64,000 bases of DNA from Candidatus Uhrbacteria bacterium (GCA_023246355.1 JAHFIQ010000003.1:85018-149017), one strand, 5' to 3'. Counted from the stretch's first letter, positions 2,594 through 18,019 are shown. Made by a program: numbers and translations. The notes: generated by a model not told the origin, from the letters alone.

Positions 2594-3895
2594 TTAGCCC
2601 TTCAAAATTTTCTCAAACCTCTCGACATCCTCTCTCACCACAAACACATCCACAAATTTCAGCTTCTCGTTGTACTTCATCAGCAGATCTGAATATTCCA
2701 TCATCGGCATGATCCGCGAACCTGCCAATACCTTTTTTTCGACAAACACGTCATGTGACGCATCTGATCCCAAGGAGGTCAGTTCTTTGCCGGCAGAATG
2801 TGTGAACCAACGAATGTTGTTCATCTCACAGATCGACTTGATCCGCTCAAGCGTCTGTCTATCGTCGGCGACACTCTCTTGCAAACGCAAAATCCGTCGA
2901 GCCGGCAGACGAGCCATGATGTGATGCGACCAATACTGTTTCGGATCGCGCGCGGCGGCAAACAACTGCTCAATCACCGCACCATCATGCAAATCCGCAT
3001 AGACATGAGGATCGGTAGGAATCGTGAGAGGAACTTCTCGCGTGGCGATCGCTTGCTCAAGGTAATGTATGAACCCGGCCTTCGTTTTATGAAAATAGAC
3101 TTGATCAAACATGTGATAGCGCGCCAAGAGGAAGGCCTCAAAGGCTCGAACGCCATTTTCGGCGAGCGTTAGAACAAACCGACCGTCTTTCTCCTGTGCA
3201 CTCATGCTGGAAATCAACCAGTCTATATCAAAGGCGCCGTAGGCCACGCCACAAAAATAACTATCGCGTAGCAGATAGTCCATCCGATCGGCATCTGCTT
3301 CGCCTGAAATCAGCTGACGCATCAGCGGATGCAGCGATTCACATCTTGATGCGATGGTCTCAAACCCTTGCGAGGGTTTCACCCCAGCATGGACAAGTGA
3401 GGCCACATCCTGAGCCAGATGCATTTCAAGTGCGCCCTCCTTTGCCATGGTCTGAAGCAAGAGCACACTATAATCCTCGTGATGCGCTTGGCGATTCTCT
3501 GTATCACTCCACCAGGTCCAGTCCATAGGCAGCGCATGGCGCATGGGAAAAATAGACTCACACTCATGGGAGAATGGTCCATGTCCAATATCATGAAGCA
3601 GACCAGCGAGCCGAATCCTCTGGCGCAGCCCGTTGATTTCCTCGGGGGTAAATCTCTCAACAAGGTTTGGTGTTCCCTCAATCACTTTTCCAAAAAGTCG
3701 CCCAGCGACATGCATCGCTCCCAGTCCGTGCATAAACCGTGTATGAACAGCGCCGGGATACACGTACGTTTGCAAAAAAGAAAGCTGTGAAATAAAACGC
3801 AACCGTTGAAAAAACGGATGGTCAATTATCTTTCGTTCAAATTCATCAAAAGCGATGCGCTTGTGAATCGGATCCCGAATCTCGTAGGGCTGCAT
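2594..3895 (-). CDS. HD-domain phosphohydrolase (dGTPase-like)
   Basis: HD motif LLHDIGHGPFSH plus RFMHGLGAMHVA; 433 aa. Confidence 0.85.
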   Translation of the reverse strand: MQPYEIRDPIHKRIAFDEFERKIIDHPFFQRLRFISQLSFLQTYVYPGAVHTRFMHGLGAMHVAGRLFGKVIEGTPNLVERFTPEEINGLRQRIRLAGLLHDIGHGPFSHECESIFPMRHALPMDWTWWSDTENRQAHHEDYSVLLLQTMAKEGALEMHLAQDVASLVHAGVKPSQGFETIASRCESLHPLMRQLISGEADADRMDYLLRDSYFCGVAYGAFDIDWLISSMSAQEKDGRFVLTLAENGVRAFEAFLLARYHMFDQVYFHKTKAGFIHYLEQAIATREVPLTIPTDPHVYADLHDGAVIEQLFAAARDPKQYWSHHIMARLPARRILRLQESVADDRQTLERIKSICEMNNIRWFTHSAGKELTSLGSDASHDVFVEKKVLAGSRIMPMMEYSDLLMKYNEKLKFVDVFVVREDVERFEKILKG

Positions 3896-3936: not shown

Positions 3937-6039
3937 TCAATCAAACCGAATCGTCTGGCCTGAACGAACTGTCCCACTTGTTGCAGGTGCCGCCACAGGA
4001 CGGGGTGCAGGAGGAGGTGGAGGAGTCAGCGTTGATGTGGCAATCACAGGTGGTCTTGGAGCGCTCGGCTGCCCGATAGGAGATCGCTCTTCACCTGGTC
4101 CTGTGGATTTTTTTCCACGTCTGCGGCGTTTCTTTCTGAGAGGATCAGCGGATTCTGTCGATGGGCGTGGAGCAATAGGTGCTGGTGATACAGAGGGAGC
4201 CTGAGTCTGCTTGCGCGCCTCACGAATTTTTTTCAAACAATCCTCACAAAACGCTGGTCGTGAACGATCAAGCTTCACGTTCGTGGAAAAATCCTTTTTG
4301 CATTCTGAACAAGTGTATGTTTCCCTGGGAACCGCTGGAATCGCCGTGACCTCTCGCTTCGGGATCACAGGAACCTCTTGCCTTTGGATAACAGGAGCTG
4401 CTGGTGCTGGTGCTGGTGCGGACGCAGGTTTTACAGGAACAAGGGCCTCCAGTTTCACGGCGGGCTGCTCTGATATTTTTTCTACCGGTGTCCCCTCTGT
4501 TGGTTTGGGAACAGGAAGAGGTTCAACCTTCGCCACAAATGGTTTTGATTTTTTTCCTCCCTTGCGTTCCTCACGGACAATCTCAATACAATCATCACAA
4601 TAAATCGGTCGCGAGCGATCAAGCTCCACAGGCAAAATGACTTCCTTAGCACAGCGCGAGCACTTGTATTCAAATCGCGGTTTTTTGTTTTCCTTGGTCG
4701 CCTTCTTCTTCGCCTCAGCTGCCTCCAAAAGCGTGTCCATGTCCGCACCCTCCATGCCGCTCCACTGCAAAATCTTTTCTTCGATCACGCCACGAGGTTG
4801 AGCATATCGCTCCCTGGAAACTTTAATGACCTTTTCTTCAGAACCTGTCACCTGTGCAATCGGCGGCAGGGTGAGCGCAGAGAACGGCTGACTCGTCACC
4901 CCATCGATGAGCAACTTAATGTAGACGTTGTACTTGGGCAGATTGATGATGTCCTCAGGCGTGAACCGGGGCATGAACTCCGTTTCCATGAATGTCGCAT
5001 CAGGCGATCCCACTCGAAACGTAATGATGGTTCCCACGTTGCCAAACACCGCGTCGCGCACTTCTTCACTCAACTGTGCCACATACTGATGCGCCATCGT
5101 CAGACACAGCCGATACTTACGTGCCTCGGACAAAATACTCGCGAACGACTCCACGGCAAAGTTTTGAAACTCGTCGACGTAGAGATAAAAATCCTTGCGT
5201 TCACTTTCAGGAATTTCCACGCGCTCCATGGCGGCCAATTGCATCTTCGTGATCAGGAGCCCTCCCAGGAGTCGGGAGTTATCTTCTCCAATTCTTCCCT
5301 TTGAAAGGTTGATGATGAAGATTTTCTCGCTGTCCATGATTTCACGCACGTTGATGGTCGACTTCACTTGCGCGACGATATTGCGAATAACCACCGCGGA
5401 CAAAAACTGACCAATCTTGTTTTGAATCGGCGCCACGGCTTCTTGTGCGTATTTTTCATTGTACGAAGCAAACTCCACCAACCAAAACTGTTTGACCACG
5501 GGGTCCTTTACGTTCCCCACGATCCGTTTGCGAAAGTCCGCATCTGAGAGCATGCGATTGATTCCCAGCAAAGTCTGTCCGGGATTATCCAAAAGCGCCA
5601 AGAGCGTGTTATTCAAAATATATTCCATGCGGCTGGACCACATGTTCTCCCAAATTTTTTGAAAGACCCCCATCATGCCCGAGACCACAAGATGCTTATG
5701 ACTTTCACTCACGGCTTCCAAAATGTTGAAGCCCACAGGAAAATCCATGTCCGCCGGGTTGAAATACACCACGTCGTTCATCCGCCAACTCGGAATAAAA
5801 TTGATGAGACGCTCGGCGGTGTCGCCGTGAGGATCAACATACGCACAACCGTGCCCTGCGTAGATGTCCGACAAAATAAGATTTTCCAACAGTACGGTCT
5901 TGCCCATGCCTGTTTTTCCAATCACATACACGTGGCGGCGGCGGTCGTCGGTCTTAATGCCAAACTTCGTCATCTTGTTGCGAAAATTCGTTTTCGCAAA
6001 ATAGTTGACCTCATTGTCGTGATCGTGATTGTAACCCAT
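3937..6039 (-). CDS. TraD/TrwB/VirD4-like coupling ATPase (FtsK/HerA superfamily) with tandem C-terminal zinc ribbons
   Basis: Walker A VIGKTGMGKT, Walker B YLYVDEFQNF, and a T4CP-like block SEARKYRLCLTMAHQYVAQLSEEVRDAVFGNVGTIITF. C-terminus has two repeated CxxC-x17-CxxC modules (YKCSRCAKEV...CDDC and YTCSECKKDF...CEDC) separated by Pro/Ala-rich linkers. Confidence 0.65.
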   Translation of the reverse strand: MGYNHDHDNEVNYFAKTNFRNKMTKFGIKTDDRRRHVYVIGKTGMGKTVLLENLILSDIYAGHGCAYVDPHGDTAERLINFIPSWRMNDVVYFNPADMDFPVGFNILEAVSESHKHLVVSGMMGVFQKIWENMWSSRMEYILNNTLLALLDNPGQTLLGINRMLSDADFRKRIVGNVKDPVVKQFWLVEFASYNEKYAQEAVAPIQNKIGQFLSAVVIRNIVAQVKSTINVREIMDSEKIFIINLSKGRIGEDNSRLLGGLLITKMQLAAMERVEIPESERKDFYLYVDEFQNFAVESFASILSEARKYRLCLTMAHQYVAQLSEEVRDAVFGNVGTIITFRVGSPDATFMETEFMPRFTPEDIINLPKYNVYIKLLIDGVTSQPFSALTLPPIAQVTGSEEKVIKVSRERYAQPRGVIEEKILQWSGMEGADMDTLLEAAEAKKKATKENKKPRFEYKCSRCAKEVILPVELDRSRPIYCDDCIEIVREERKGGKKSKPFVAKVEPLPVPKPTEGTPVEKISEQPAVKLEALVPVKPASAPAPAPAAPVIQRQEVPVIPKREVTAIPAVPRETYTCSECKKDFSTNVKLDRSRPAFCEDCLKKIREARKQTQAPSVSPAPIAPRPSTESADPLRKKRRRRGKKSTGPGEERSPIGQPSAPRPPVIATSTLTPPPPPAPRPVAAPATSGTVRSGQTIRFD

Positions 6040-6044
6040 AAAAT

Positions 6045-7676
6045 TTATGTGGGAAGATTTGGTGGTACAAGATCGTCCTCTGGCTCTGCGGTCGGAGACG
6101 TGGGTGAAAGCGGTGTATTGAAATCCTCGTCACTGGTGGCCCAGACCGTGGATTTTTTTTCTGGGACATCGTCAGGTACGACCGCAGGAGTCGAGGCTGT
6201 TGGCGATGGTGGATGTGGAAGGGCCTCTGAAAGCGGCTCGTCAGATTCAGGCTCAGCAATACCAAATGGAGAGGCGGGTACTGTTTCTTCCTCGGCAGCC
6301 GAAATATCTGACGCTCCAGGCAAGGACTGCTCGGCAAAGGTGATGGGCAAGCCCACGGGCGGTTCACCACGTTTAGATTCGCTCTTTTTCACGAGTGGCG
6401 CCTTGATGGAGATGGCTGGGAAGTGCCAAAGGGTCGCAAGCTCTTCTGTGTTGAGGAAAACCGGATTCGCACCAATCCCCCAGTTGCGGGTTTTGTACGC
6501 CTTCATGAGCGTGTGCTGCTTTTTTGTGTACACCCAACGCATCCAAAAATAATCGTCCTTGGGAACCTGGGGAATAAACAGGGTAAATTTGTTCAAGTTC
6601 AAATTTGAGTACTGGTTCCAAATACCTTTGACAATACCTGTTCGTTCTACTTTGACGAACACATTTTTCTTGGCGATGTACACGACGCGGATCTTGGCGC
6701 CAAGTCCAACCTTGCTCGCTTTGAGGACAATCGCCTCAGCTTCCTGTTTTTGGACAGGCGAAATCTTAAACGCTTTCCAAATATCTTTTTCTTCTGCCGC
6801 AGCGCCAGGGGTGAGCAAACCGCTCAAGTCCACATCAAGTGCCTCTTTAAGCAGCTCATTTGGGAGAGTCAAAAGCGATTCACTCGCAGACTCGATCATC
6901 CCTTTTTTCTTTTTTTCTTCCACGCCGTAGGTGGCATTCACATACTTGATGCCCTTTTTCATCCAGTCGTTACTAGAAGGCTGGACAACAATCTGAATCC
7001 AAAAATGCTCACCTGGACGCATGGTCCCAAGTTGCTCAAGCGTGTATCCAAGAGGATCTTTTATTTCCTGAGAGATCCGATCCTCGAAATCCACATAGGT
7101 TCGAATCGGAAACATCGAGTCCCGATCCAAGGTCATTTCCCCACCCCACATTTCATATTCGGTATCCGGAAAATCCACAGGGAATGGCTTGGTATAATCC
7201 TCGACTTCAGAAATCTGGGCATCCGGGTAATGGGCGTAGATCCCAGCTTCGACCACATCGCGAAATCGCGTTTGCGTGCGAATCACAAATTGGATATAGC
7301 CTTCAGTGGAAACAATTTCAAAGGAAAAAACCGGGTGCAGTTTTCCGTCCATCCATGTTTCCTTCCAGGTGATGGTGGATTTGGTCCCGTAGAGGTTCGC
7401 AAAGAAATTCTCCATGGCCTTTGGTGTTTGTTCGGTCATGGAGGGAACATCCACAGCCAAGTAAGTGAACTTGAGTTTGGCCGAATACAAACCACGACGG
7501 TAATCGCGCCACAACTCGGTAAATCCCCAGGCCAGCGTGGCAGCAATCGGAATCCACCCAAACCAGATCAACAAATCAAAAAGAATAGCGTCAATCGGTT
7601 GATCAAAGTAGGAACTCGAGTGCGCCACAGCTGTTGTGGCTTGTGCCACAATCGGAATCGCAAAAAGGGGAAGCAT
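6045..7676 (-). CDS. membrane protein partner of the coupling-ATPase-like gene (hypothetical)
   Basis: 543 aa with an N-terminal TM region (FDLLIWFGWIPIAATLAWGF), a large soluble domain and an acidic/Pro-Ser-Thr-rich C-terminal tail. Stop lies 5 bp from the next gene start (same strand), so likely co-transcribed. Confidence 0.5.
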   Translation of the reverse strand: MLPLFAIPIVAQATTAVAHSSSYFDQPIDAILFDLLIWFGWIPIAATLAWGFTELWRDYRRGLYSAKLKFTYLAVDVPSMTEQTPKAMENFFANLYGTKSTITWKETWMDGKLHPVFSFEIVSTEGYIQFVIRTQTRFRDVVEAGIYAHYPDAQISEVEDYTKPFPVDFPDTEYEMWGGEMTLDRDSMFPIRTYVDFEDRISQEIKDPLGYTLEQLGTMRPGEHFWIQIVVQPSSNDWMKKGIKYVNATYGVEEKKKKGMIESASESLLTLPNELLKEALDVDLSGLLTPGAAAEEKDIWKAFKISPVQKQEAEAIVLKASKVGLGAKIRVVYIAKKNVFVKVERTGIVKGIWNQYSNLNLNKFTLFIPQVPKDDYFWMRWVYTKKQHTLMKAYKTRNWGIGANPVFLNTEELATLWHFPAISIKAPLVKKSESKRGEPPVGLPITFAEQSLPGASDISAAEEETVPASPFGIAEPESDEPLSEALPHPPSPTASTPAVVPDDVPEKKSTVWATSDEDFNTPLSPTSPTAEPEDDLVPPNLPT

Positions 7677-7699
7677 AACTCAAACTAGTATATCAAAAA

Positions 7700-7730
7700 A
7701 CTGGGGATGAACCCAGTTTGATGTCTGCTT
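7700..7730 (-). terminator. intrinsic terminator downstream of secF
   Basis: Minus-strand reading AAACTGGGttcatcCCCAGTTT followed by TTTTGATA, immediately after the secF stop. Confidence 0.5.
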
Positions 7731-8627
7731 CTATTTTTTTAGACGCTCTTCCCACTCAACCAGCGCCGGACTTGCAAAGAAAATTGAAGAGTACGTTCCC
7801 ACCAAAATGCCGATCATGAGCGCCAAGGCAAAGGGACGGGTAGATTCACCACCAAAGAAAAAGATAGCGGTGAGCGCTAACAGTGTCGTCATGGACGTAT
7901 TCACTGAGCGCACAAACGTTTGACGAATACTTTTTTCAACGACCTGAGGAAATAGCTCCCCGGTGTGATGCGCAAGGTTTTCACGTGTTCGATCAAACAC
8001 CACCACGGTGTCGGAAATCGAGTATCCCAAAATGGTCAGAATGGCCGCGACAAATCCAGATCCAACCTCCCAGTGATAGAAGTGTCCAAGCACGGCAAAC
8101 GCTCCTAAAGGAATAATCACATCATGCGCCGCACACAGAACCGTGATGAGTCCGTACTTCCAGGAGGCAATCGGATCTGAAACTTTTCGGAACGCCCAGG
8201 AGATATACAAACCAATCAGCAGAAGCGTGAGTCCCACACCGATCAAAGACGAACGACGCAATTCGTTTCCAACCGTTGGACCGATGGAATCAAATCGCAG
8301 CTCCGTAAAGTCCCCGAAGACCTGAGTGAGTGTGGTGAGCGTGGCTTGATGCGTGGCTTCGTCTTGAACTTCTGATCGAATAATTAACTTTTGATTTTCA
8401 TCGGCTGACTGGACAGAGACACTCGACAAGGATGTCAGGGCATCTCTCACATCTGTGGTGGAAGGCGCTCCCTGCGTAAACTCAAGCTCCATGAGCGATC
8501 CACCAGTGAAATCCACGCCAAACTTGAGACCAAACACGAACAGCGCGACGATGCTCGCGACGATCAAGACTCCGGAGAGCAGGAACCAGTATTTTCTCAG
8601 GTCAACAAAACTGAAAGAGGTCATCAT
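7731..8627 (-). CDS. secF: protein translocase subunit SecF
   Basis: SecF N-terminus (FVDLRKYWFLLSGVLIVASIVALFVFGLKFGVDFTGGS) and polytopic C-terminal half. 4-bp overlap with secD. Confidence 0.9.
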   Translation of the reverse strand: MMTSFSFVDLRKYWFLLSGVLIVASIVALFVFGLKFGVDFTGGSLMELEFTQGAPSTTDVRDALTSLSSVSVQSADENQKLIIRSEVQDEATHQATLTTLTQVFGDFTELRFDSIGPTVGNELRRSSLIGVGLTLLLIGLYISWAFRKVSDPIASWKYGLITVLCAAHDVIIPLGAFAVLGHFYHWEVGSGFVAAILTILGYSISDTVVVFDRTRENLAHHTGELFPQVVEKSIRQTFVRSVNTSMTTLLALTAIFFFGGESTRPFALALMIGILVGTYSSIFFASPALVEWEERLKK

Positions 8628-10699
8628 ACGTTTTTATGTCGAGTAATTCCGTAAAGGGCAGGACGCTGCAGAGCACGAACTCCACGAATATTTTTCATGT
8701 AGGTTCTGGTGACCGTAATGGCAGTGAACAGACTCAGCAGCACTCCCACAGCGAGCGTTAAGGCAAATCCACGTACGAAGCTCGACGTAAAGCTGTAGAG
8801 CACACAGGCAGAAATGAGGGTGGTGAGATGCCCATCACGAATCGGCGGCCAGGCACGCTTAAAGCCTTCGTCCATGGATGAGATGAGATCGCGACCACTG
8901 CGAAATTCGTCTTTGATGCGCTCAAAGATGAGCACGTTTGCATCCACGGCAATTCCCAACGACAGAATCAATCCAGCAATTCCCGAAAGGGTAATCGTCA
9001 CCCCAAACAAACGGTAGGCCGCCATGTTGAGAACCACGTACAAAATGAGCGCAGCCACAGCCAGGAGTCCAGGAAGACGATACAGAGCGATCATGAACAA
9101 CGCGACCAATAAGAATCCAAGATAAGCTGCCGTCAAACTCTTGTGCAAGGAAGCCAGACCGAGCGTCGGGCCGATGGTTTCTTGTGAGATCAGGTTGACC
9201 GGCACAGGAAGGGCACCTGCATTCAATCGTTGAGCAAGAATTTTTGCTTCCTCAAGGGTGAAGTCCCCTGTGATCACCGCCTTGCCGCCGTAGATGGCCT
9301 GTTGAACCATTGGTGTGGAGATGGGTGTGCCATCCAAGAAAATCGCAATCGGCTGTCCGACATACTCTTCGGTCAATTTGCCAAACAGGTCACCACCCTC
9401 AGCAGAAAACGTCAGCGCCACATACGGCGAGCCGGTGTTTTGATCAAACTGGACCGCCGCACGATCAAGATCTTTTCCCGAGAGTTCTGAATTCACCCAG
9501 GGCGAGGCCTCAGGAATGATGTCGTACATGTCAGAAAGCTCCATGAGGATGCGCTGGATTGTGTAGGTCGAAACGCTGCGCTCTTCTTGTTTGTAGATGA
9601 GATGGTAGCCAAAATCCGTTTCAACGATCTCAGAAATGCCACCCACGGGAAGCGCTGTGGCTGCCAGGCCAAAGGCTGGAACGTACTTGTCCGCCGTGGC
9701 AAACCCCAGGTCACCACTGTTGGTCGCTGCCGAAGGATCCGTAGAATTCTCAAGCGCAAGCTGCGCAAAATTTTCAGGCGTTGCTTGGTCTTTCAATTTT
9801 CCAATTTGGATGGATGCATCCAGTTGCGAGAGTCCAGTTGTACATCCAGTCTTTCCTTCAAAACAGATCAAGATGTGTGAAAGGTGCATTTCTGTTTTAT
9901 CCTCGTGGCTCACGTATTTGAAAATACTTACGCCATCCTCGTTTTCAAGAAGATTGTTGTAGAGCTGCCCTGGATTCATTCCGCGTTCAATCAAAATCGC
10001 GTATTCAGCAAAATACGAGTCATTGGTGATGCCGTCGATCACTCCCTTGGTCGTGTCTTTATTTTTTTCAATGCTGTTTTCTGCCACCAACGTATCAAAG
10101 TCCTCTCCAGCAAGGGCACGATTCAACACCGCGCGAGCCGCCGTGCGCTCTGCCTCGTTTGCGGTATCAAGCTGCGCTTGCTCTTCAGGAGTGAGGTCAC
10201 GATCAGTTTCCTTGCCAGGGGTTTTGAATTCAAGCACCGGCGTCTCGCCAATAAGCGCGATCGCTTCAGTGACATCCAGGACCCCGGCCAAATCAATAAT
10301 GACTCGATACGTTCCACCGGTCGTCGTTGTTTGTACGATGGGTTCAGAAACACCAAACGCGTTCACGCGCCGTTCAATCACATCTCGCACACCTTCCAGC
10401 GCCTCATTGCGGTCTGCTTCAGGAATCTGGCTCATGTCAGCTTCGTAGATCAGATGCGTTCCTCCTTGCAAATCAAGGCCGAGTTTGAATGGAATGTCAT
10501 TGATGGACGGAGGAGCCCAACCTGTTTGCGCTTGCACAAAGAGCGCACCGCGATTCCACAAAAACGGAAAATCATAGATACCAACTGCCACGGTCGCAAC
10601 CAGCAAAATAATGGCCGTGAGCCGCATTCCCCAAGGACTTTGTGAGGTTTTCTGCTGAGCTTTCTTCTTGAGCTTCCAGGTTTGCATAGGATCAAACAA
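8624..10699 (-). CDS. secD: protein translocase subunit SecD
   Basis: GLDLQGGTHLIY periplasmic-domain signature and a C-terminal SecD/SecF membrane domain; 691 aa. Confidence 0.9.
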   Translation of the reverse strand: MFDPMQTWKLKKKAQQKTSQSPWGMRLTAIILLVATVAVGIYDFPFLWNRGALFVQAQTGWAPPSINDIPFKLGLDLQGGTHLIYEADMSQIPEADRNEALEGVRDVIERRVNAFGVSEPIVQTTTTGGTYRVIIDLAGVLDVTEAIALIGETPVLEFKTPGKETDRDLTPEEQAQLDTANEAERTAARAVLNRALAGEDFDTLVAENSIEKNKDTTKGVIDGITNDSYFAEYAILIERGMNPGQLYNNLLENEDGVSIFKYVSHEDKTEMHLSHILICFEGKTGCTTGLSQLDASIQIGKLKDQATPENFAQLALENSTDPSAATNSGDLGFATADKYVPAFGLAATALPVGGISEIVETDFGYHLIYKQEERSVSTYTIQRILMELSDMYDIIPEASPWVNSELSGKDLDRAAVQFDQNTGSPYVALTFSAEGGDLFGKLTEEYVGQPIAIFLDGTPISTPMVQQAIYGGKAVITGDFTLEEAKILAQRLNAGALPVPVNLISQETIGPTLGLASLHKSLTAAYLGFLLVALFMIALYRLPGLLAVAALILYVVLNMAAYRLFGVTITLSGIAGLILSLGIAVDANVLIFERIKDEFRSGRDLISSMDEGFKRAWPPIRDGHLTTLISACVLYSFTSSFVRGFALTLAVGVLLSLFTAITVTRTYMKNIRGVRALQRPALYGITRHKNV

Positions 10700-10759: not shown

Positions 10760-11986
10760 TCAGGACGTTGGACGAACAAGCGTCTTCTCGCCACCAACAG
10801 CAGCTGGAAGAGGTTCCTGGCTGTACATTCTTTTATCTGGCCAGTTGTTTCGAGAACGAATGAGATGCAGGTACGCCTCAGACTGCTTGTCGATTTCTGC
10901 ATCTCCTCCAGGCATGAACGAAAGACGATCCTTGATTCCCAACACGCGTGCCATGCCGTTCAAGGCTCGGGCATAGTTCAAACCATTCAGAAGATTATTC
11001 ACCTCGGAGGACGCGATCTGCGCAGAGGTCGTGAGTCTGTGCGCGGCATCTCGTGCTCCTGTCCATTCGTTGTCTGCAAACGGATCGACAATCAAGTACG
11101 TCCACTTCCCTTCTCCATTTTTGTACACACGGATATTTCCACCACCAGCCATATCAAGCATCTTGTTTGATGTTTGCGTAAACTCCATCATGCGCTCCAC
11201 AAGATCACGCAGAACATCTGCAAGTTCATCATCCACATAGGACTCCCCGAGCAGTCGTACGGTTCCCACATGCAAAAAGCTATACAGCAGGTTTGCATCA
11301 AACGGTTCCTTCTCACCAAACGCCATTCGATTTAATCGTTGATACTCGTCCAGAGGGACATCGAAACGCTCTGTATATCGAAACCCAAACGAGTGCATGT
11401 CAGGATTTTCTCCAGCTTCTTTTTTGAGCATCCTGGCGCGTTCAGGAAGAATTTCCTGATACCGAACAATCGTCGGGACTGAAACCGTTGACGCAGGAGC
11501 AAGATCCGTGAGATCACTGCGCTCGAGGATTTCACGGGCAACCTCGGGTGTCACAGGAACGTTACGAGTCACGGTGCGTGTCGAGAGAATATGATCAGCT
11601 GGAAACGCACGTCGCAGGGCTTTCACAAACTGTTCCTCACGTTCAATGGCCTGTTCCATTCGATCCGTATCATCTTCTTGTTCGGCCATGGCCCTGGCGC
11701 CTTCTCGGATCCGTGCTTCGTTGGTCGTGGCAAAGGGATGTGTTTCCCATCGCGTAAAGGCGTCGCGCATCAAACCTCGTTTCAAAAAATACATGTCAGC
11801 TTTCAACACCACCTTTCTGTGAGCTCCTTCTCGTCCTTCTTTTTGCTTCACCCGAAACACAACAGACTCCCCTCCGTGGCCGGCATATTCAAGCTCGCCA
11901 GGAAGAAGCGGATCAGCTTTGCGTTCCTGGACGTATCTCTCTGCGAGTCCTGGAACAGGATCAGATGGTGGGCGCTCATGGGGCAT
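10760..11986 (-). CDS. hypothetical protein (408 aa)
   Basis: Long ORF in the minus-strand gene run. Contains GHGGESVVFRV and LDMAGGGNIRVY...IVDPFADN segments but no confident family assignment. Confidence 0.45.
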   Translation of the reverse strand: MPHERPPSDPVPGLAERYVQERKADPLLPGELEYAGHGGESVVFRVKQKEGREGAHRKVVLKADMYFLKRGLMRDAFTRWETHPFATTNEARIREGARAMAEQEDDTDRMEQAIEREEQFVKALRRAFPADHILSTRTVTRNVPVTPEVAREILERSDLTDLAPASTVSVPTIVRYQEILPERARMLKKEAGENPDMHSFGFRYTERFDVPLDEYQRLNRMAFGEKEPFDANLLYSFLHVGTVRLLGESYVDDELADVLRDLVERMMEFTQTSNKMLDMAGGGNIRVYKNGEGKWTYLIVDPFADNEWTGARDAAHRLTTSAQIASSEVNNLLNGLNYARALNGMARVLGIKDRLSFMPGGDAEIDKQSEAYLHLIRSRNNWPDKRMYSQEPLPAAVGGEKTLVRPTS

Positions 11987-11994
11987 AGATTGAT

Positions 11995-12732
11995 TTATCG
12001 TTGAGGCTGTTGATTCAGCCAGCGAGCTGCAAACTGATCGGCAAATAATTCTTTAGGAAGGGATCGGTAGGCACGTTCTTGTATTTCTAGAAGCTGCTCA
12101 ATCGTCGTCACATCAAGCTGCAAAAGACGTTCTCTGGTTTTTGGCCGGTCATCTAAAAATGCATCAAGCGTTGGAAACGAAACAAGACTTGCCTTCAGCT
12201 CGCTGGGAGATAGACCGGGAACAGGCAACGTCTCCATCTGGCGAAAAAAGAAATCGCGCCAAACCATCGGCGCATTCTCCTGTCCGATCTCAGCGTCAGA
12301 GGCAACGTTGGAAAGATAATCGTACGCATGGCCAAGTTCATGGAGAAATATAGCGTTTTTTAATAGTCTTGGACTGAGATCCTCAAACGAAATTCCAAGA
12401 CTCTCAGCTGTGATCTGAGCTGCAACGCGTCTGTCTTGTTTAAGCTTTTCAAAATCCTTTTCATTTCCAGGTACAAGAATGATGGCTGGGTCTGGATACT
12501 CTTCATTGGGTAAAACAAACTCCCCTCCCGTAAACTGAAGGCGATGAACATCACTGGGCGTGATAATTTCCACGCGAGAGAGAATTGGATAACGTTCAAC
12601 AACCTGTATCCATAACTCAAATAGCTCAGGATCCGTTCCTTCCGGGGCTTCAACCGTTCTGGGATGTTCTGCTGAGAATCCAGAAAAATGACTCTCAGCA
12701 GAAGCATTGGTAGATGGGTATTCATGATTCAT
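11995..12732 (-). CDS. hypothetical HExxH-motif protein (putative metallopeptidase-like)
   Basis: 245 aa; contains IFLHELGHAYDY (HExxH). Confidence 0.45.
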   Translation of the reverse strand: MNHEYPSTNASAESHFSGFSAEHPRTVEAPEGTDPELFELWIQVVERYPILSRVEIITPSDVHRLQFTGGEFVLPNEEYPDPAIILVPGNEKDFEKLKQDRRVAAQITAESLGISFEDLSPRLLKNAIFLHELGHAYDYLSNVASDAEIGQENAPMVWRDFFFRQMETLPVPGLSPSELKASLVSFPTLDAFLDDRPKTRERLLQLDVTTIEQLLEIQERAYRSLPKELFADQFAARWLNQQPQR

Positions 12733-13589
12733 AGGACTGATAACTTACCTTTTGCGAAATACGTATCGACTACCTCCATCCATTTTTCAATGCGCTCTTC
12801 CCATCGATCGATTCCAATTTTGAGCACATCGAGCAACTCCTCATAAAAGACATCGTCCTTTGTGCCAGACAATTTTTCCATAGCCAACCGAAAAGGATCC
12901 TCACTTCCGGTTGCATACGCTTCGTTCACTGCACGAACAAGCGTCGGACGATCGGGTGCATGGTCAACCAGATACTGGATGTAATGCCGTTCAAGGTAAC
13001 CACTGGTTGAAACCTCCTCTTTTTCTTTTTCTGTCAGTATATCTTTCAGTGCTTCATCCGCCAGCCAGTCTGTCACGGCCTCCCAAAACAATGCGCGCTG
13101 GGCTGGTTTGTGCCTGAAATCAACCGACAGCGGATCCACTTCTCCTGTTTTCACAAACCGGCTATGTCGAAGTGGGCCAAGATACACAGAATAGACCTGC
13201 TCGTCTTCGTCACGCATATAATCGACAGCAACGTAGCTCTCGGGAGCCATCAGATGCGAGCCCTCATGAAGGAGTGTATGAAGTGTCTCCGCTCGTGAAG
13301 CACTGTGGAGTACAACGGCAGAACGGCGAACCTCATGCCCGTCTACCTGGTACCGGATCAATCCATCAGCGCCATCTTCTTTTGGATTTTCTTCACCCAT
13401 ACGATCTAGCTCCTGCCGTGTCACAAAAACCGTTTTCCTCAAAACACTCAGTCGACTCTCTAAAACTTCTGACGGAAGGACATCAGCAAACAACCCACGC
13501 AGCGTCCGCTCGGCCGTCTTTTTAAACTCGACTCGCTCGGCTTCGATCCGAGCAATTTCACGTTCAGCTGGGTTATCGTGTGAGGACAT
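12729..13589 (-). CDS. hypothetical HExxH-motif protein (putative metallopeptidase-like)
   Basis: 286 aa; contains LLHEGSHLMAPESY (HExxH); 4-bp overlap with the downstream gene. Confidence 0.45.
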   Translation of the reverse strand: MSSHDNPAEREIARIEAERVEFKKTAERTLRGLFADVLPSEVLESRLSVLRKTVFVTRQELDRMGEENPKEDGADGLIRYQVDGHEVRRSAVVLHSASRAETLHTLLHEGSHLMAPESYVAVDYMRDEDEQVYSVYLGPLRHSRFVKTGEVDPLSVDFRHKPAQRALFWEAVTDWLADEALKDILTEKEKEEVSTSGYLERHYIQYLVDHAPDRPTLVRAVNEAYATGSEDPFRLAMEKLSGTKDDVFYEELLDVLKIGIDRWEERIEKWMEVVDTYFAKGKLSVL

Positions 13590-15334: not shown

Positions 15335-18019
15335 TCATGCTCCATGGCACTTCTTAAACTTTTTTCCTGATCCGCAATGGCAGGGTTCGTTGCGGCCGAG
15401 TTTTTCTTCTCGCATGCCTTCGACCCCCCTCATTCCCCCCTTGCCAAGGGGGGAAGCTTTCTGATTCCCCTCTACGGCTCCTTGCAGCACCACTCCTGCC
15501 TTCTGGAAGACAGATCGGCCGAGTTCCATTTGGACTTTCATGTCCACCGCGTGCTTGGCGTACTTAAAAAACGTATACGTAATTTCATGGTTGATTGATC
15601 CAAGAAGATTTTGGAACATACCAAAGCCTTCTCGTTTGTACTCAACCAGCGGATCGCGCTGACCGTAGCCTTGCAAGCCGATGCCGGTTCTCAGCGCACT
15701 CATCGCAGCAAGATGATCAATCCAGAGTGTATCGATCGATCGCAGAATCACCCCGCGCTCGATGTTGTAGATGCTCTTTTTGTCTTCGAAGACGTCGGCG
15801 AGCTGATCGTAGGTCTGGCGAACGACTTCCATGATTTTGATGATGACTTGCGTCCGATCTTGCGCCAGCCGCTCTCGCTCTTTTGTGGATGCTAGGTCAA
15901 GCGTTGTGAGTGAAGACTTCTGTGCATCCGTGAGCGGCACAATCGTCCCTACGGTCTCAACAATTTCTTTCATGTTCCATCCACCTTCTCCACCTTGTCC
16001 ACCCTCAGAACTATGAAACAACACGACCTGCTCCACCTCACCTTCGATCACATCCAGCACACGAGATCGAAGAGCTTCTGGTTCTTTTGCAAACAATTCA
16101 AGGATTTCCAAGCGTCTGGCATAGATGACTTCACGATGCTTGTTGAGCACGTCGTCATACTCGAGCAAATGTTTGCGTGAATCAAAATGATACCCTTCCA
16201 CGCGTGTCTGTGCCTTTTCAATTGAGCCGGTGATGAGTTTGTTTTCAATGGGCATGTCATCCGGAATTCCGAGGCGGTCCATCATGCCTCGCGCACGGTC
16301 TGAACCGAAGATCCGCATGAGTCCATCTTCCATAGACAAATAAAACTGGGTGGAACCTGGATCGCCTTGGCGACCTGAACGTCCGCGCAATTGATTATCG
16401 ATGCGCCGAGCGTCGTGGCGCTCCGTGCCGATCACATGCAATCCTCCAAGTTCTTTGACACGCGCTTCTTCCTCAGGCGTTGCTGGATTTCCGCCAAGCT
16501 TTATGTCGACTCCGCGTCCTGCCATGTTAGTGGCAATCGTCACCGCGTGAGTACGTCCTGCCTGGGCGATAATTTCCGCCTCGCGATCGTGATTTTTCGC
16601 ATTCAATACTTCATGCCTGACCCCCGCGTTTGTCAAAAGCAGGGACAGCACCTCATTTTTTTCCACGCTCACGGTACCCACCAAGACGGGTTGACCTTTT
16701 TCTTGAAGCGTCTGAATTTCTTTGACGACCGCCTCAAACTTTCCCTTTTCACTCTTAAAAATTTTGTCTCCTAAGTCAACCCGCTCCACAGGTTTGTTCG
16801 TTGGGATCTCTACGACTTCCAAATTGTAGATCTTGGAAAATTCTTCGGCTTCGGTTGCCGCGGTTCCGGTCATGCCTGACAACTTGTGATACAAACGAAA
16901 AAGATTCTGGAACGTAATGGTCGCAAGTGTTTGGCTCTCACGCTGGATCTGCACGCCTTCTTTTGCCTCGATGGCTTGATGAATCCCTTCGGAGAATCGG
17001 CGGCCCTGCATCAGACGTCCAGTAAATTCATCCACAATAATCACCTCACCTTCCTTGACCACATAATGGACGTCCTTTTGATAGTTGGCACGAGCTCGGA
17101 GCGCAGAATCAGCGTAGCGTTGATATTGTCCTTGATCGATCGCATAGAGATTTTCGATTCCAAGCGCTCGTTCAATATGTTCAATGCCTGTTTCTGTCAG
17201 CGTGGCCGCACGCATTTTTTCGTCCACATTATAATCTTCGTTCTCTTTCAACGAAGCCACGATCTGCGCAAACCGATAGTAGAGGTCATTGGATTTCTCC
17301 GCAGGTGCGGAGATGATAAGTGGTGTGCGAGCTTCGTCGATCAGGATGGAATCGATTTCGTCAACGATCGCGTAATGCAATTCGCGCATGACGCATGCCT
17401 CAATGCTCGGCGCCATGTTGTCGCGCAAATAATCAAATCCAAATTGATTGTTGGTGCCGTAGGTGATGTCCGCTTGGTAGGCTTCGCGGCGAGAGACCGA
17501 TCTGAGTCCATGCGAAGCCGCGGGATCAAACAGGAGTCCTCCTTCATGCTGAATCACACCAACACTCATGCCAAGCGCATGAAAAATTTGCCCCATCCAT
17601 GCGGCATCGCGACGGGCCAGATAATCGTTGACCGTCACCAGATGACAACCCTGACCACGAAGAGCATTCGCGTAGAGCGCAAGCGTTGAGGTGAGTGTTT
17701 TTCCCTCACCAGTACGCATCTCAGCTATCTGTCCACGATGGAGCGTGAGCCCACCAATGAGCTGAACATCAAAATGGCGCTGCCCAAGTGTTCGTTTTGC
17801 GACCTCTCGTACCACCGCAAAGGCCTCGTACACAAGATCATCAAGAGCCACGCCTTGTGCGAGGCGCGATTTAAACTCGGAGGTTTTTCCTTTCAGTTCA
17901 TCGTCCGTGAGCGATGCAATCGAAGGCTCGAGCGCGTTAATGCTCTCGATTTCACGAAACAGACTTCCGATGAGTTTCTTGTTTGGATCCCCAAAAAGAA
18001 GTTTCAAGACTCTGGACAT
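15335..18019 (-). CDS. secA: preprotein translocase ATPase SecA
   Basis: 894 aa; MRTGEGKTLTSTLALYANAL Walker A region and DEAD motor. C-terminal zinc finger CHCGSGKKFKKCHG. Linker contains an in-frame palindromic-element insertion at 15414-15445. Confidence 0.97.
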   Translation of the reverse strand: MSRVLKLLFGDPNKKLIGSLFREIESINALEPSIASLTDDELKGKTSEFKSRLAQGVALDDLVYEAFAVVREVAKRTLGQRHFDVQLIGGLTLHRGQIAEMRTGEGKTLTSTLALYANALRGQGCHLVTVNDYLARRDAAWMGQIFHALGMSVGVIQHEGGLLFDPAASHGLRSVSRREAYQADITYGTNNQFGFDYLRDNMAPSIEACVMRELHYAIVDEIDSILIDEARTPLIISAPAEKSNDLYYRFAQIVASLKENEDYNVDEKMRAATLTETGIEHIERALGIENLYAIDQGQYQRYADSALRARANYQKDVHYVVKEGEVIIVDEFTGRLMQGRRFSEGIHQAIEAKEGVQIQRESQTLATITFQNLFRLYHKLSGMTGTAATEAEEFSKIYNLEVVEIPTNKPVERVDLGDKIFKSEKGKFEAVVKEIQTLQEKGQPVLVGTVSVEKNEVLSLLLTNAGVRHEVLNAKNHDREAEIIAQAGRTHAVTIATNMAGRGVDIKLGGNPATPEEEARVKELGGLHVIGTERHDARRIDNQLRGRSGRQGDPGSTQFYLSMEDGLMRIFGSDRARGMMDRLGIPDDMPIENKLITGSIEKAQTRVEGYHFDSRKHLLEYDDVLNKHREVIYARRLEILELFAKEPEALRSRVLDVIEGEVEQVVLFHSSEGGQGGEGGWNMKEIVETVGTIVPLTDAQKSSLTTLDLASTKERERLAQDRTQVIIKIMEVVRQTYDQLADVFEDKKSIYNIERGVILRSIDTLWIDHLAAMSALRTGIGLQGYGQRDPLVEYKREGFGMFQNLLGSINHEITYTFFKYAKHAVDMKVQMELGRSVFQKAGVVLQGAVEGNQKASPLGKGGMRGVEGMREEKLGRNEPCHCGSGKKFKKCHGA

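Follow-up and report, generated by a model that had tools for sequence, protein, structure and literature searches.

Type IV coupling proteins (T4CPs), of which TrwB of R388, VirD4, TraD and DotL are the canonical examples, are P-loop ATPases of the FtsK-HerA superfamily with an all-alpha insertion and a TraG-D_C motif. TraD and DotL recruit partners through C-terminal extensions. The canonical proteins possess two N-terminal transmembrane (TM) helices of their own, carry neither DUF8128 nor zinc ribbons in cis, and have their genes on mobile DNA that also encodes a relaxase and a type IV secretion system (T4SS). Here we describe a locus in a 64,000-nucleotide stretch of DNA from a Candidatus Uhrbacteria bacterium (GCA_023246355.1 JAHFIQ010000003.1:85018-149017; the window, with positions counted from its first letter), in which two genes of the minus strand, B and directly downstream of it A, appear to make up one coupling protein in two pieces. 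The product of A has in common with the canonical T4CPs the P-loop ATPase and the TraG-D_C motif and may have an all-alpha insertion, whereas in membrane helices, DUF8128, zinc ribbons and genomic setting the pair differs from all of them.

The source of the window belongs to the Patescibacteria, a group that may account for much of bacterial diversity and whose members live attached to other cells. A 2025 survey derived their T4SS from monoderm conjugation systems, found VirD4-type homologues in 2,918 of 3,035 genomes (96%; 5,713 proteins), reported that T4SS loci of class ABY1 often contain comF, recG and radA, and proposed import of DNA or of other macromolecules as a possible task of the T4SS (PMC12102498). 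In one species tested the T4SS is essential, and the cluster published there has no recognisable coupling protein or relaxase. The main text of the Cell paper on S. epibionticum does not name VirD4, our literature search on PF10412 (TrwB_AAD_bind) returned plasmid studies only, and that for DUF8128 returned no paper naming it. As T4CP homologues had already been reported by the survey, the present work sharpens a known picture and does not add a new category; it identifies a candidate coupling protein that needs a second gene, DUF8128, for which no role had been put forward.

Results

Gene A is predicted to encode a soluble coupling ATPase

Both open reading frames (ORFs) are present as the initial annotation, made by a model from the sequence alone, had described them: 700 amino acids (aa) for A and 543 aa for B, co-oriented, with a 5-bp gap (Table 1). 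The same annotation assigned A to the TraD/VirD4 coupling family, and the profile searches agree. The Pfam model TrwB_AAD_bind matches A with 44.1 bits against a cut-off of 20.5 (aa 27-343 on profile positions 8-310 of 387) and TraG-D_C with 26.2 bits against a cut-off of 22, and a sequence search of the PDB with A gave TrwB and DotL as the only significant matches, the Walker A and Walker B regions aligning with those of TrwB in the same order. FtsK_SpoIIIE (16.9 bits, cut-off 24) and DUF87, the HerA model (17 bits, cut-off 23.2), touched the P-loop region only and stayed below their cut-offs, and the VirB4 profiles CagE_TrbE_VirB, AAA_10 and P-loop_TraG matched neither A nor B. As the T4CP profiles score above their cut-offs, the FtsK and HerA profiles below theirs, and TrwB and DotL are the relatives found in the PDB, A is, to judge from its sequence, a VirD4/TrwB-type coupling ATPase devoid of the usual N-terminal membrane domain.

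The Walker motifs and the SEARKYRL...GNVGTIITF block named in the initial annotation are present, in a core in which most alignment columns are invariant among 37 homologues. In the AlphaFold2 (AF2) model of A residues 112-236 form helices only, at low predicted confidence (pLDDT, predicted local distance difference test). The reported lack of N-terminal TM helices was borne out by a hydropathy scan, which found no hydrophobic window in A long enough for such a helix; A thus has no membrane anchor in its own polypeptide, and the anchor sits on the separate protein B.

Protein B is the detached N-terminal half

The initial annotation correctly described B as an N-terminally anchored protein with an acidic Pro/Ser/Thr tail and missed its identity, which is that of the detached DUF8128 half of a coupling protein. 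The precomputed label PF26449 (DUF8128) is carried by the identical protein of the 168,750-bp source contig and by all of at least 120 listed homologues. The TM helix of B (aa 30-56) is followed by a run of basic residues and, as the positive charges come after the helix, we infer from the positive-inside rule that the large domain of B lies in the cytoplasm.

An AF2 model of B built on 42 sequences is confident over most of aa 40-250 and 300-420 (block means of about 80-95) and disordered from aa 425 onward. When this model was searched with Foldseek, the best six matches were all chains of TrwK, a VirB4 protein. Because B has no P-loop, and no other P-loop ATPase was among the fold matches listed, the modelled fold probably corresponds to the N-terminal domain peculiar to VirB4. 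Sequence searches of the PDB with B, either as a single sequence or as a profile, gave nothing meaningful.

The two modules occur together in other lineages

Searching plasmids with B by tblastn gave no match, and the fused and archaeal relatives were reached through A only. A tblastn search of plasmids with the A core returned genes of about 800 aa from Embleya and Streptomyces, in which the A-like part starts at about residue 410 and is about 31% identical. When the Embleya protein served as query, about 118 of 120 listed Streptomycetaceae homologues carried PF26449 and PF10412 in one protein of about 800 aa. Profile alignment by hhalign placed aa 21-447 of B onto aa 32-393 of the fused proteins (E 6e-4, 355 columns, TM helix included) and aa 24-390 of A onto aa 410-778 (probability 100%, E 3.5e-48).

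The fused genes have an informative context. The order in Embleya is PrgI (VirB3), an XF1762 family protein, a VirB4-like ATPase, the fused T4CP, Replic_Relax and an NlpC/P60 hydrolase, and in Streptomyces a T4SS pilin, a 550-aa protein with no Pfam match, PrgI, a VirB4-like ATPase, the fused T4CP, Replic_Relax and an SLT/NlpC_P60 hydrolase, with a resolvase and integrases at the cluster edges. The Streptomyces cluster is a monoderm T4SS resembling an integrative and conjugative element (ICE). A split arrangement is found on a plasmid of Halomontanus rarus (locus L087), where an ORF of 391 aa overlaps the start of a T4CP-like gene and is a homologue of B (hhalign probability 94.7%, E 6e-8).

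Since the fused Streptomycetaceae proteins and the haloarchaeal pair share the modules of both B and A, the DUF8128-plus-ATPase module is a T4CP class common to Actinobacteria (fused), Archaea (split) and Patescibacteria (split). Within it B is the detached N-terminal half and A the soluble ATPase half, which explains the missing TM helices of A, and we assign to DUF8128 the function of the anchor and docking half of this class.

A stand-alone ATPase of 395 aa on a plasmid of Sulfitobacter mediterraneus (L081:6953-8140), 41% identical to the A core, is the closest relative outside Patescibacteria in PLSDB; it lies among transposases, and no B-like gene is annotated there.

The pair is linked and strongly conserved in Patescibacteria

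Close homologues of the pair all come from Patescibacteria, chiefly Candidatus Uhrbacteria. A pattern scan of GTDB species genomes with B recovered at least 591 relatives, and we examined 80 loci. Many records of these loci are titled 'uncultured Gammaproteobacteria bacterium', a title that seems to stem from mislabelling in a bulk submission. Of the 75 loci with room for A, about 70 have it downstream of B in the same orientation, with stop-to-stop frames that mostly abut or overlap, and no fusion was seen among the 70 Patescibacteria loci with both genes. In one exception (L059) A is found 7 kb downstream of B, and four loci (L056, L077, L078 and L080) have no A in the stretch examined. In two of the latter (L077:9446-14936 and L080:9449-15230) the genes after B encode a GT4 glycosyltransferase, a DUF4012 protein and a DUF11 surface-type protein, and a sigma-70 region-4/HARE-HTH protein is encoded ahead of B.

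The genes secD and secF stand upstream of B on the same strand in 58-60 of the 80 loci. The distance from secF to B is at most about 400 nt in 38 loci and 0.4-4.7 kb in a further 22; the other 20 show no secF in the stretch examined, some of their contigs starting too near B to tell. Compared with the window, the 39 loci that contain all four of A, B, SecD and SecF show a median identity of 71% in the A core, 53% in SecD and SecF and 47% in the B core; for MnmA, which 19 of them also contain, the median is 60%. Conservation of the A core exceeds that of the core genes compared, namely SecD, SecF and MnmA. In Patescibacteria the two genes form a module of the core genome that is inherited vertically and subject to very strong purifying selection. 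The G+C content of both genes (0.49-0.52) equals that of their flanks, as had been noted.

In nine loci (L011, L013, L014, L016, L021, L023, L025, L029 and L030) a shorter paralogue of A that has no zinc ribbon comes directly after A; that of L013 (9393-10808) has 471 aa and about 40% identity, and the window holds no counterpart. Its occurrence fits the figure of about two T4CP homologues per genome in the survey (PMC12102498).

Zinc ribbons and oppositely charged tails

Beyond its core A carries the two CxxC-x17-CxxC modules recognised in the initial annotation, which are 21/40 identical in an ungapped alignment. The duplication of about 330 bp claimed for this region is absent: the only DNA repeat is a 69-nt core of 72% identity (4210-4278 against 4561-4629, at a spacing of 351 nt), and it coincides with the coding modules of the ribbons. 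Ribbon 1 is matched by Pfam zf_Tbcl_2 and NCBIfam TIGR04272 and ribbon 2 by Zn_ribbon_8 and TIGR02605, all below curated cut-offs, and the zinc-ribbon peptide has no significant relative among solved structures. Ribbon 1 reaches a pLDDT of 81-86 amid an otherwise poor model of A. The motif is present in 36 of 37 aligned A homologues, with one to three ribbons each, ribbon 2 occurring only in a subset.

Both proteins end in a charged tail, encoded at 3940-4749 in A and at 6048-6341 in B. That of A has a net charge of +19 in the window protein and a median of +13 among 34 homologues, whose tails have a median length of about 300 aa, a KKRKRKRKK-like patch and a conserved C-terminal GQ[ST]IxF[DE]. 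The tail of B carries -18 over 98 aa here and a median of -14 over about 100 aa among 41 homologues, which terminate in VPPNLP[VTIF]. The charges of the A and B tails are opposite in all aligned homologues, save for one A tail at net 0.

The locus and its neighbours

The pair sits between an HD hydrolase and secDF, the housekeeping position that had been reported for it. Pfam and NCBIfam matches together with the gene calls of the source contig give the minus-strand order secA, a run of short ORFs, secD, secF, B, A, the HD/dGTPase-like hydrolase and mnmA. No further copy of A or B was found in the window.

Table 1. Features of the B-A locus and its neighbours, with coordinates in the window.
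Feature	Position	Strand	Basis or remark
Gene A, predicted soluble VirD4/TrwB-type coupling ATPase, 700 aa	3937-6039	minus	ORF, Pfam, PDB sequence matches
ATPase core of A, aa 1-430	4750-6039	minus	motif positions, homologue alignment
Walker A GKTGMGKT, aa 41-48	5896-5919	minus	
Walker B FYLYVDEF, aa 284-291	5167-5190	minus	
SEARKYRL...AHQYVAQL...GNVGTIITF block, aa 304-341	5017-5130	minus	conserved
Zinc ribbon 1, CxxC-x17-CxxC, aa 460-484 with flanks	4561-4683	minus	
Zinc ribbon 2, aa 577-601 with flanks	4204-4332	minus	diverged duplicate of ribbon 1
Basic Pro-rich disordered tail of A	3940-4203	minus	
KKRRRRGKK patch in A tail	4108-4134	minus	
Conserved terminal peptide of A, SGxxRSGQTIRFD	3940-3978	minus	
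Gene B, membrane-anchored DUF8128 protein, 543 aa	6045-7676	minus	ORF, PF26449 label
Weak hydrophobic stretch aa 1-18 and TM helix aa 30-56 (WFGWIPI), then RDYRRGLYSAKLK	7509-7676	minus	hydropathy scan, alignment
Conserved DUF8128 domain, inferred cytoplasmic, aa 68-445, modelled VirB4 (TrwK)-like fold	6342-7475	minus	
Acidic Pro/Ser/Thr disordered tail of B	6048-6341	minus	net charge, pLDDT below 50
Terminal peptide of B, VPPNLPT	6048-6068	minus	P538, L541, P542 invariant
HD hydrolase	2594-3895	minus	HD and HD_assoc_2, weak dGTPase-like matches; directly after A
Terminator-like hairpin and T-run	7698-7719	minus	secF-B spacer, consensus scan only
secD (PPIase insertion) and secF	7731-10699	minus	Pfam and NCBIfam matches; conserved upstream neighbours
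secA	15335-18019	minus	7.7 kb upstream of the pair, same strand

The 54-nt spacer between secF and B contains an 8-bp, GC-containing hairpin followed by a T-run, on account of which B and A may be transcribed apart from secDF. SecD itself (8624-10699) bears a parvulin-type peptidyl-prolyl isomerase (PPIase; Pfam Rotamase, Rotamase_3) at aa 258-375, between SecD_1st and the P1 head, and 52 of 58 related Patescibacteria loci have the insertion within the SecD span. The short ORFs between secA and secD comprise three with no Pfam match, two with no Pfam family recorded in the source-contig gene calls and one Maf-like; the first three are consecutive (10760-13589, minus; 408, 245 and 286 aa), and only the first of them has relatives in related loci, in three. 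The HD protein matches the PADLOC dGTPase model with 25 bits, and the same gene follows A in 17 related loci as well.

Discussion

Based on these data we propose that B and A are one T4CP in two pieces that feeds cargo to a channel, most likely the Patescibacteria T4SS encoded elsewhere in the genome, a reading to which we give a probability of roughly 0.6. What the data show directly is the family membership, the fold, the linkage of the genes, their fusion in other lineages and how strongly they are conserved. In the mechanism that we envisage, B would provide the membrane anchor and a cytoplasmic DUF8128 domain of VirB4-like fold, and A a VirD4/TrwB-type P-loop ATPase with an all-alpha insertion. 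B would dock a ring of A to the membrane from the cytoplasmic side; the tail of A, basic and with zinc ribbons, may capture nucleic acid or nucleoprotein cargo, and ATP hydrolysis would drive this cargo into the membrane channel. In the Patescibacteria lineage A has acquired one to three zinc ribbons on a long basic tail, and B an acidic tail, each tail with a conserved end peptide. The Patescibacteria T4SS is the most economical choice of channel, as it derives from the same monoderm lineage.

Several observations weigh against this reading. No gene for VirB4, VirB6, a pilin or a relaxase lies near the pair in the window. All window ORFs of at least 473 aa are otherwise assigned (SecA, ClpB, DnaK, DnaB, ABC transporters, a penicillin-binding protein, Mur ligases, a Na/H exchanger and an AAA protein), which leaves none for VirB4. 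A pared-down T4SS or competence-like module and a chromosome-partition ATPase, the functions suggested in the initial annotation, are candidate roles; apart from the pair the window has no T4SS part. In the survey VirB4 occurs in 2,417 of the 3,035 Patescibacteria genomes, fewer than have a T4CP homologue, only 148 of the 5,713 T4CP homologues are near virB4, and relaxases are almost absent, being found in 103 genomes only (PMC12102498). The T4CP homologue of S. epibionticum scored as non-essential, though the T4SS there is essential (PMC12102498; Cell 2023 supplement). On the side of our own models, profile comparisons found no sequence signal between B and VirB4; as hhalign of the B profile with a Streptomyces VirB4-like protein gave E 0.54, the link to VirB4 is a structural one. 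The AF2 model of A, built on 37 close homologues, had a mean pLDDT of 52 and for this reason was not used for a fold search. Taken together, the excess of T4CP homologues over VirB4, the few relaxases, the fixed place by secDF and the extreme conservation make a T4SS-independent role possible.

The S. epibionticum protein SEML1_0293 has 921 aa with a TrwB domain at aa 402-719 and was scored as non-essential, with normalised Tn-seq reads dropping about four-fold during the time course, from 5,817 to 2,940 to 1,372 (Cell 2023 supplement). Its N-terminal extension of 400 aa suggests a candidate for a fused DUF8128 in Saccharibacteria.

It is conceivable, if rather unlikely, that the pair no longer serves a T4SS and has become a near-universal housekeeping motor, in which the zinc-ribbon tail would grip nucleic acid and B would tether the ring at the membrane, driving DNA or another polymer via a non-T4SS channel such as ComEC, or acting beside Sec. 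Stated as descent from a T4CP followed by exaptation to a T4SS-free DNA motor, for instance one for DNA uptake via ComEC in place of ComFA or for chromosomal DNA at division, this seems to us unlikely. The numbers of T4CP homologues and VirB4, which almost never adjoin, and the rarity of relaxases would suit such a motor, as would the basic tail of A with its zinc ribbons and a core better conserved than the Sec proteins, and the authors of the survey themselves consider exaptation of T4CP homologues possible (PMC12102498). The com genes listed as conserved across the Candidate Phyla Radiation are ComEC, DprA and ComFC, ComFA not being among them, and in S. epibionticum comEC and the T4CP homologue are both non-essential. 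However, neither in the window nor in the loci examined does a com or division gene adjoin the pair, all relatives from outside the phylum whose context is informative are found in T4SS clusters, and the excess of T4CP homologues over VirB4 could partly reflect incomplete genome bins.

The frequent company of sec genes raises the question of whether the pair is an ATP-driven accessory of protein export, acting alongside SecDF and SecA. The order secD-secF-B-A recurs in several Patescibacteria lineages at the frequency given above, with secF often close by, and in the window secA lies upstream on the same strand. Yet inherited gene order in small genomes would explain this synteny as well, the terminator-like hairpin separates secF from B, other DNA intervenes in the 22 loci with a distant secF and secF was not seen in the stretch examined of 20, and the fused and archaeal relatives are found in T4SS clusters and not near sec genes. 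We know of no T4CP that acts with Sec, and we regard this role as improbable.

Still less probable is that the two genes are the remnant of an integrated conjugative element or form part of a MADS-type phage defence system. The PADLOC mad8 model does match the A core (aa 33-375, 65.8 bits), and relatives are carried by ICE-like elements and plasmids. Against this, the genes match their flanks in G+C content, dozens of species keep them at a fixed place between housekeeping genes, neither an integrase nor a relaxase nor a methyltransferase is near them, B has no PADLOC match, and conservation is above that of SecD, SecF and MnmA; a mobile-element or defence origin is thus contradicted by synteny, G+C content and conservation despite the profile match. 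That A might be FtsK or HerA proper and B an unrelated neighbour, the least credible of these explanations, draws on weak P-loop matches that lie below curated cut-offs while the T4CP models pass theirs, and is refuted for A by these profile scores and for B by its linkage to A in other genomes and its fusion to A in other lineages. The outcome named in the initial annotation as its own refutation, a familiar housekeeping family for the ATPase with the membrane protein unlinked elsewhere, was accordingly not obtained.

The reading of B and A as a divided coupling protein concerns a pair that is among the best-conserved genes of these loci, and the zinc ribbons, the oppositely charged tails and the terminal peptides offer testable handles on it.

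Among known systems, EccE of the mycobacterial ESX (type VII) machinery is a much weaker match to the B model than TrwK, with a smaller domain and in a different machine. VirB4 (TrwK) resembles B in fold only, no sequence similarity being detected and B having no P-loop, and A scores with VirD4-type and not with VirB4-type models. The profile match apart, MADS differs from the pair in being an eight-gene mad operon with a methyltransferase, whereas here mad8 is the only model matched and the context (secDF, HD hydrolase, mnmA) is a housekeeping one. In Halomontanus rarus a B-like gene likewise overlaps the start of an A-like gene; its identity, however, is 26-29%, its ATPase has 1,026 aa with a different extension, and on the plasmid that carries it the neighbouring gene encodes a large 'conjugal transfer protein'. 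The fused Streptomycetaceae proteins, annotated as 'type IV secretory system conjugative DNA transfer family protein', are one polypeptide encoded between a VirB4-like ATPase and Replic_Relax in an integrase-flanked T4SS cluster, whereas the Patescibacteria pair is chromosomal and lies by secDF; the Embleya protein examined has, unlike the pair, no zinc ribbon and no long charged tail. Their modules are those of B and A read in succession: a TM helix with basic residues, DUF8128 and a TrwB-type ATPase with the TraG-D_C motif, in the same order.

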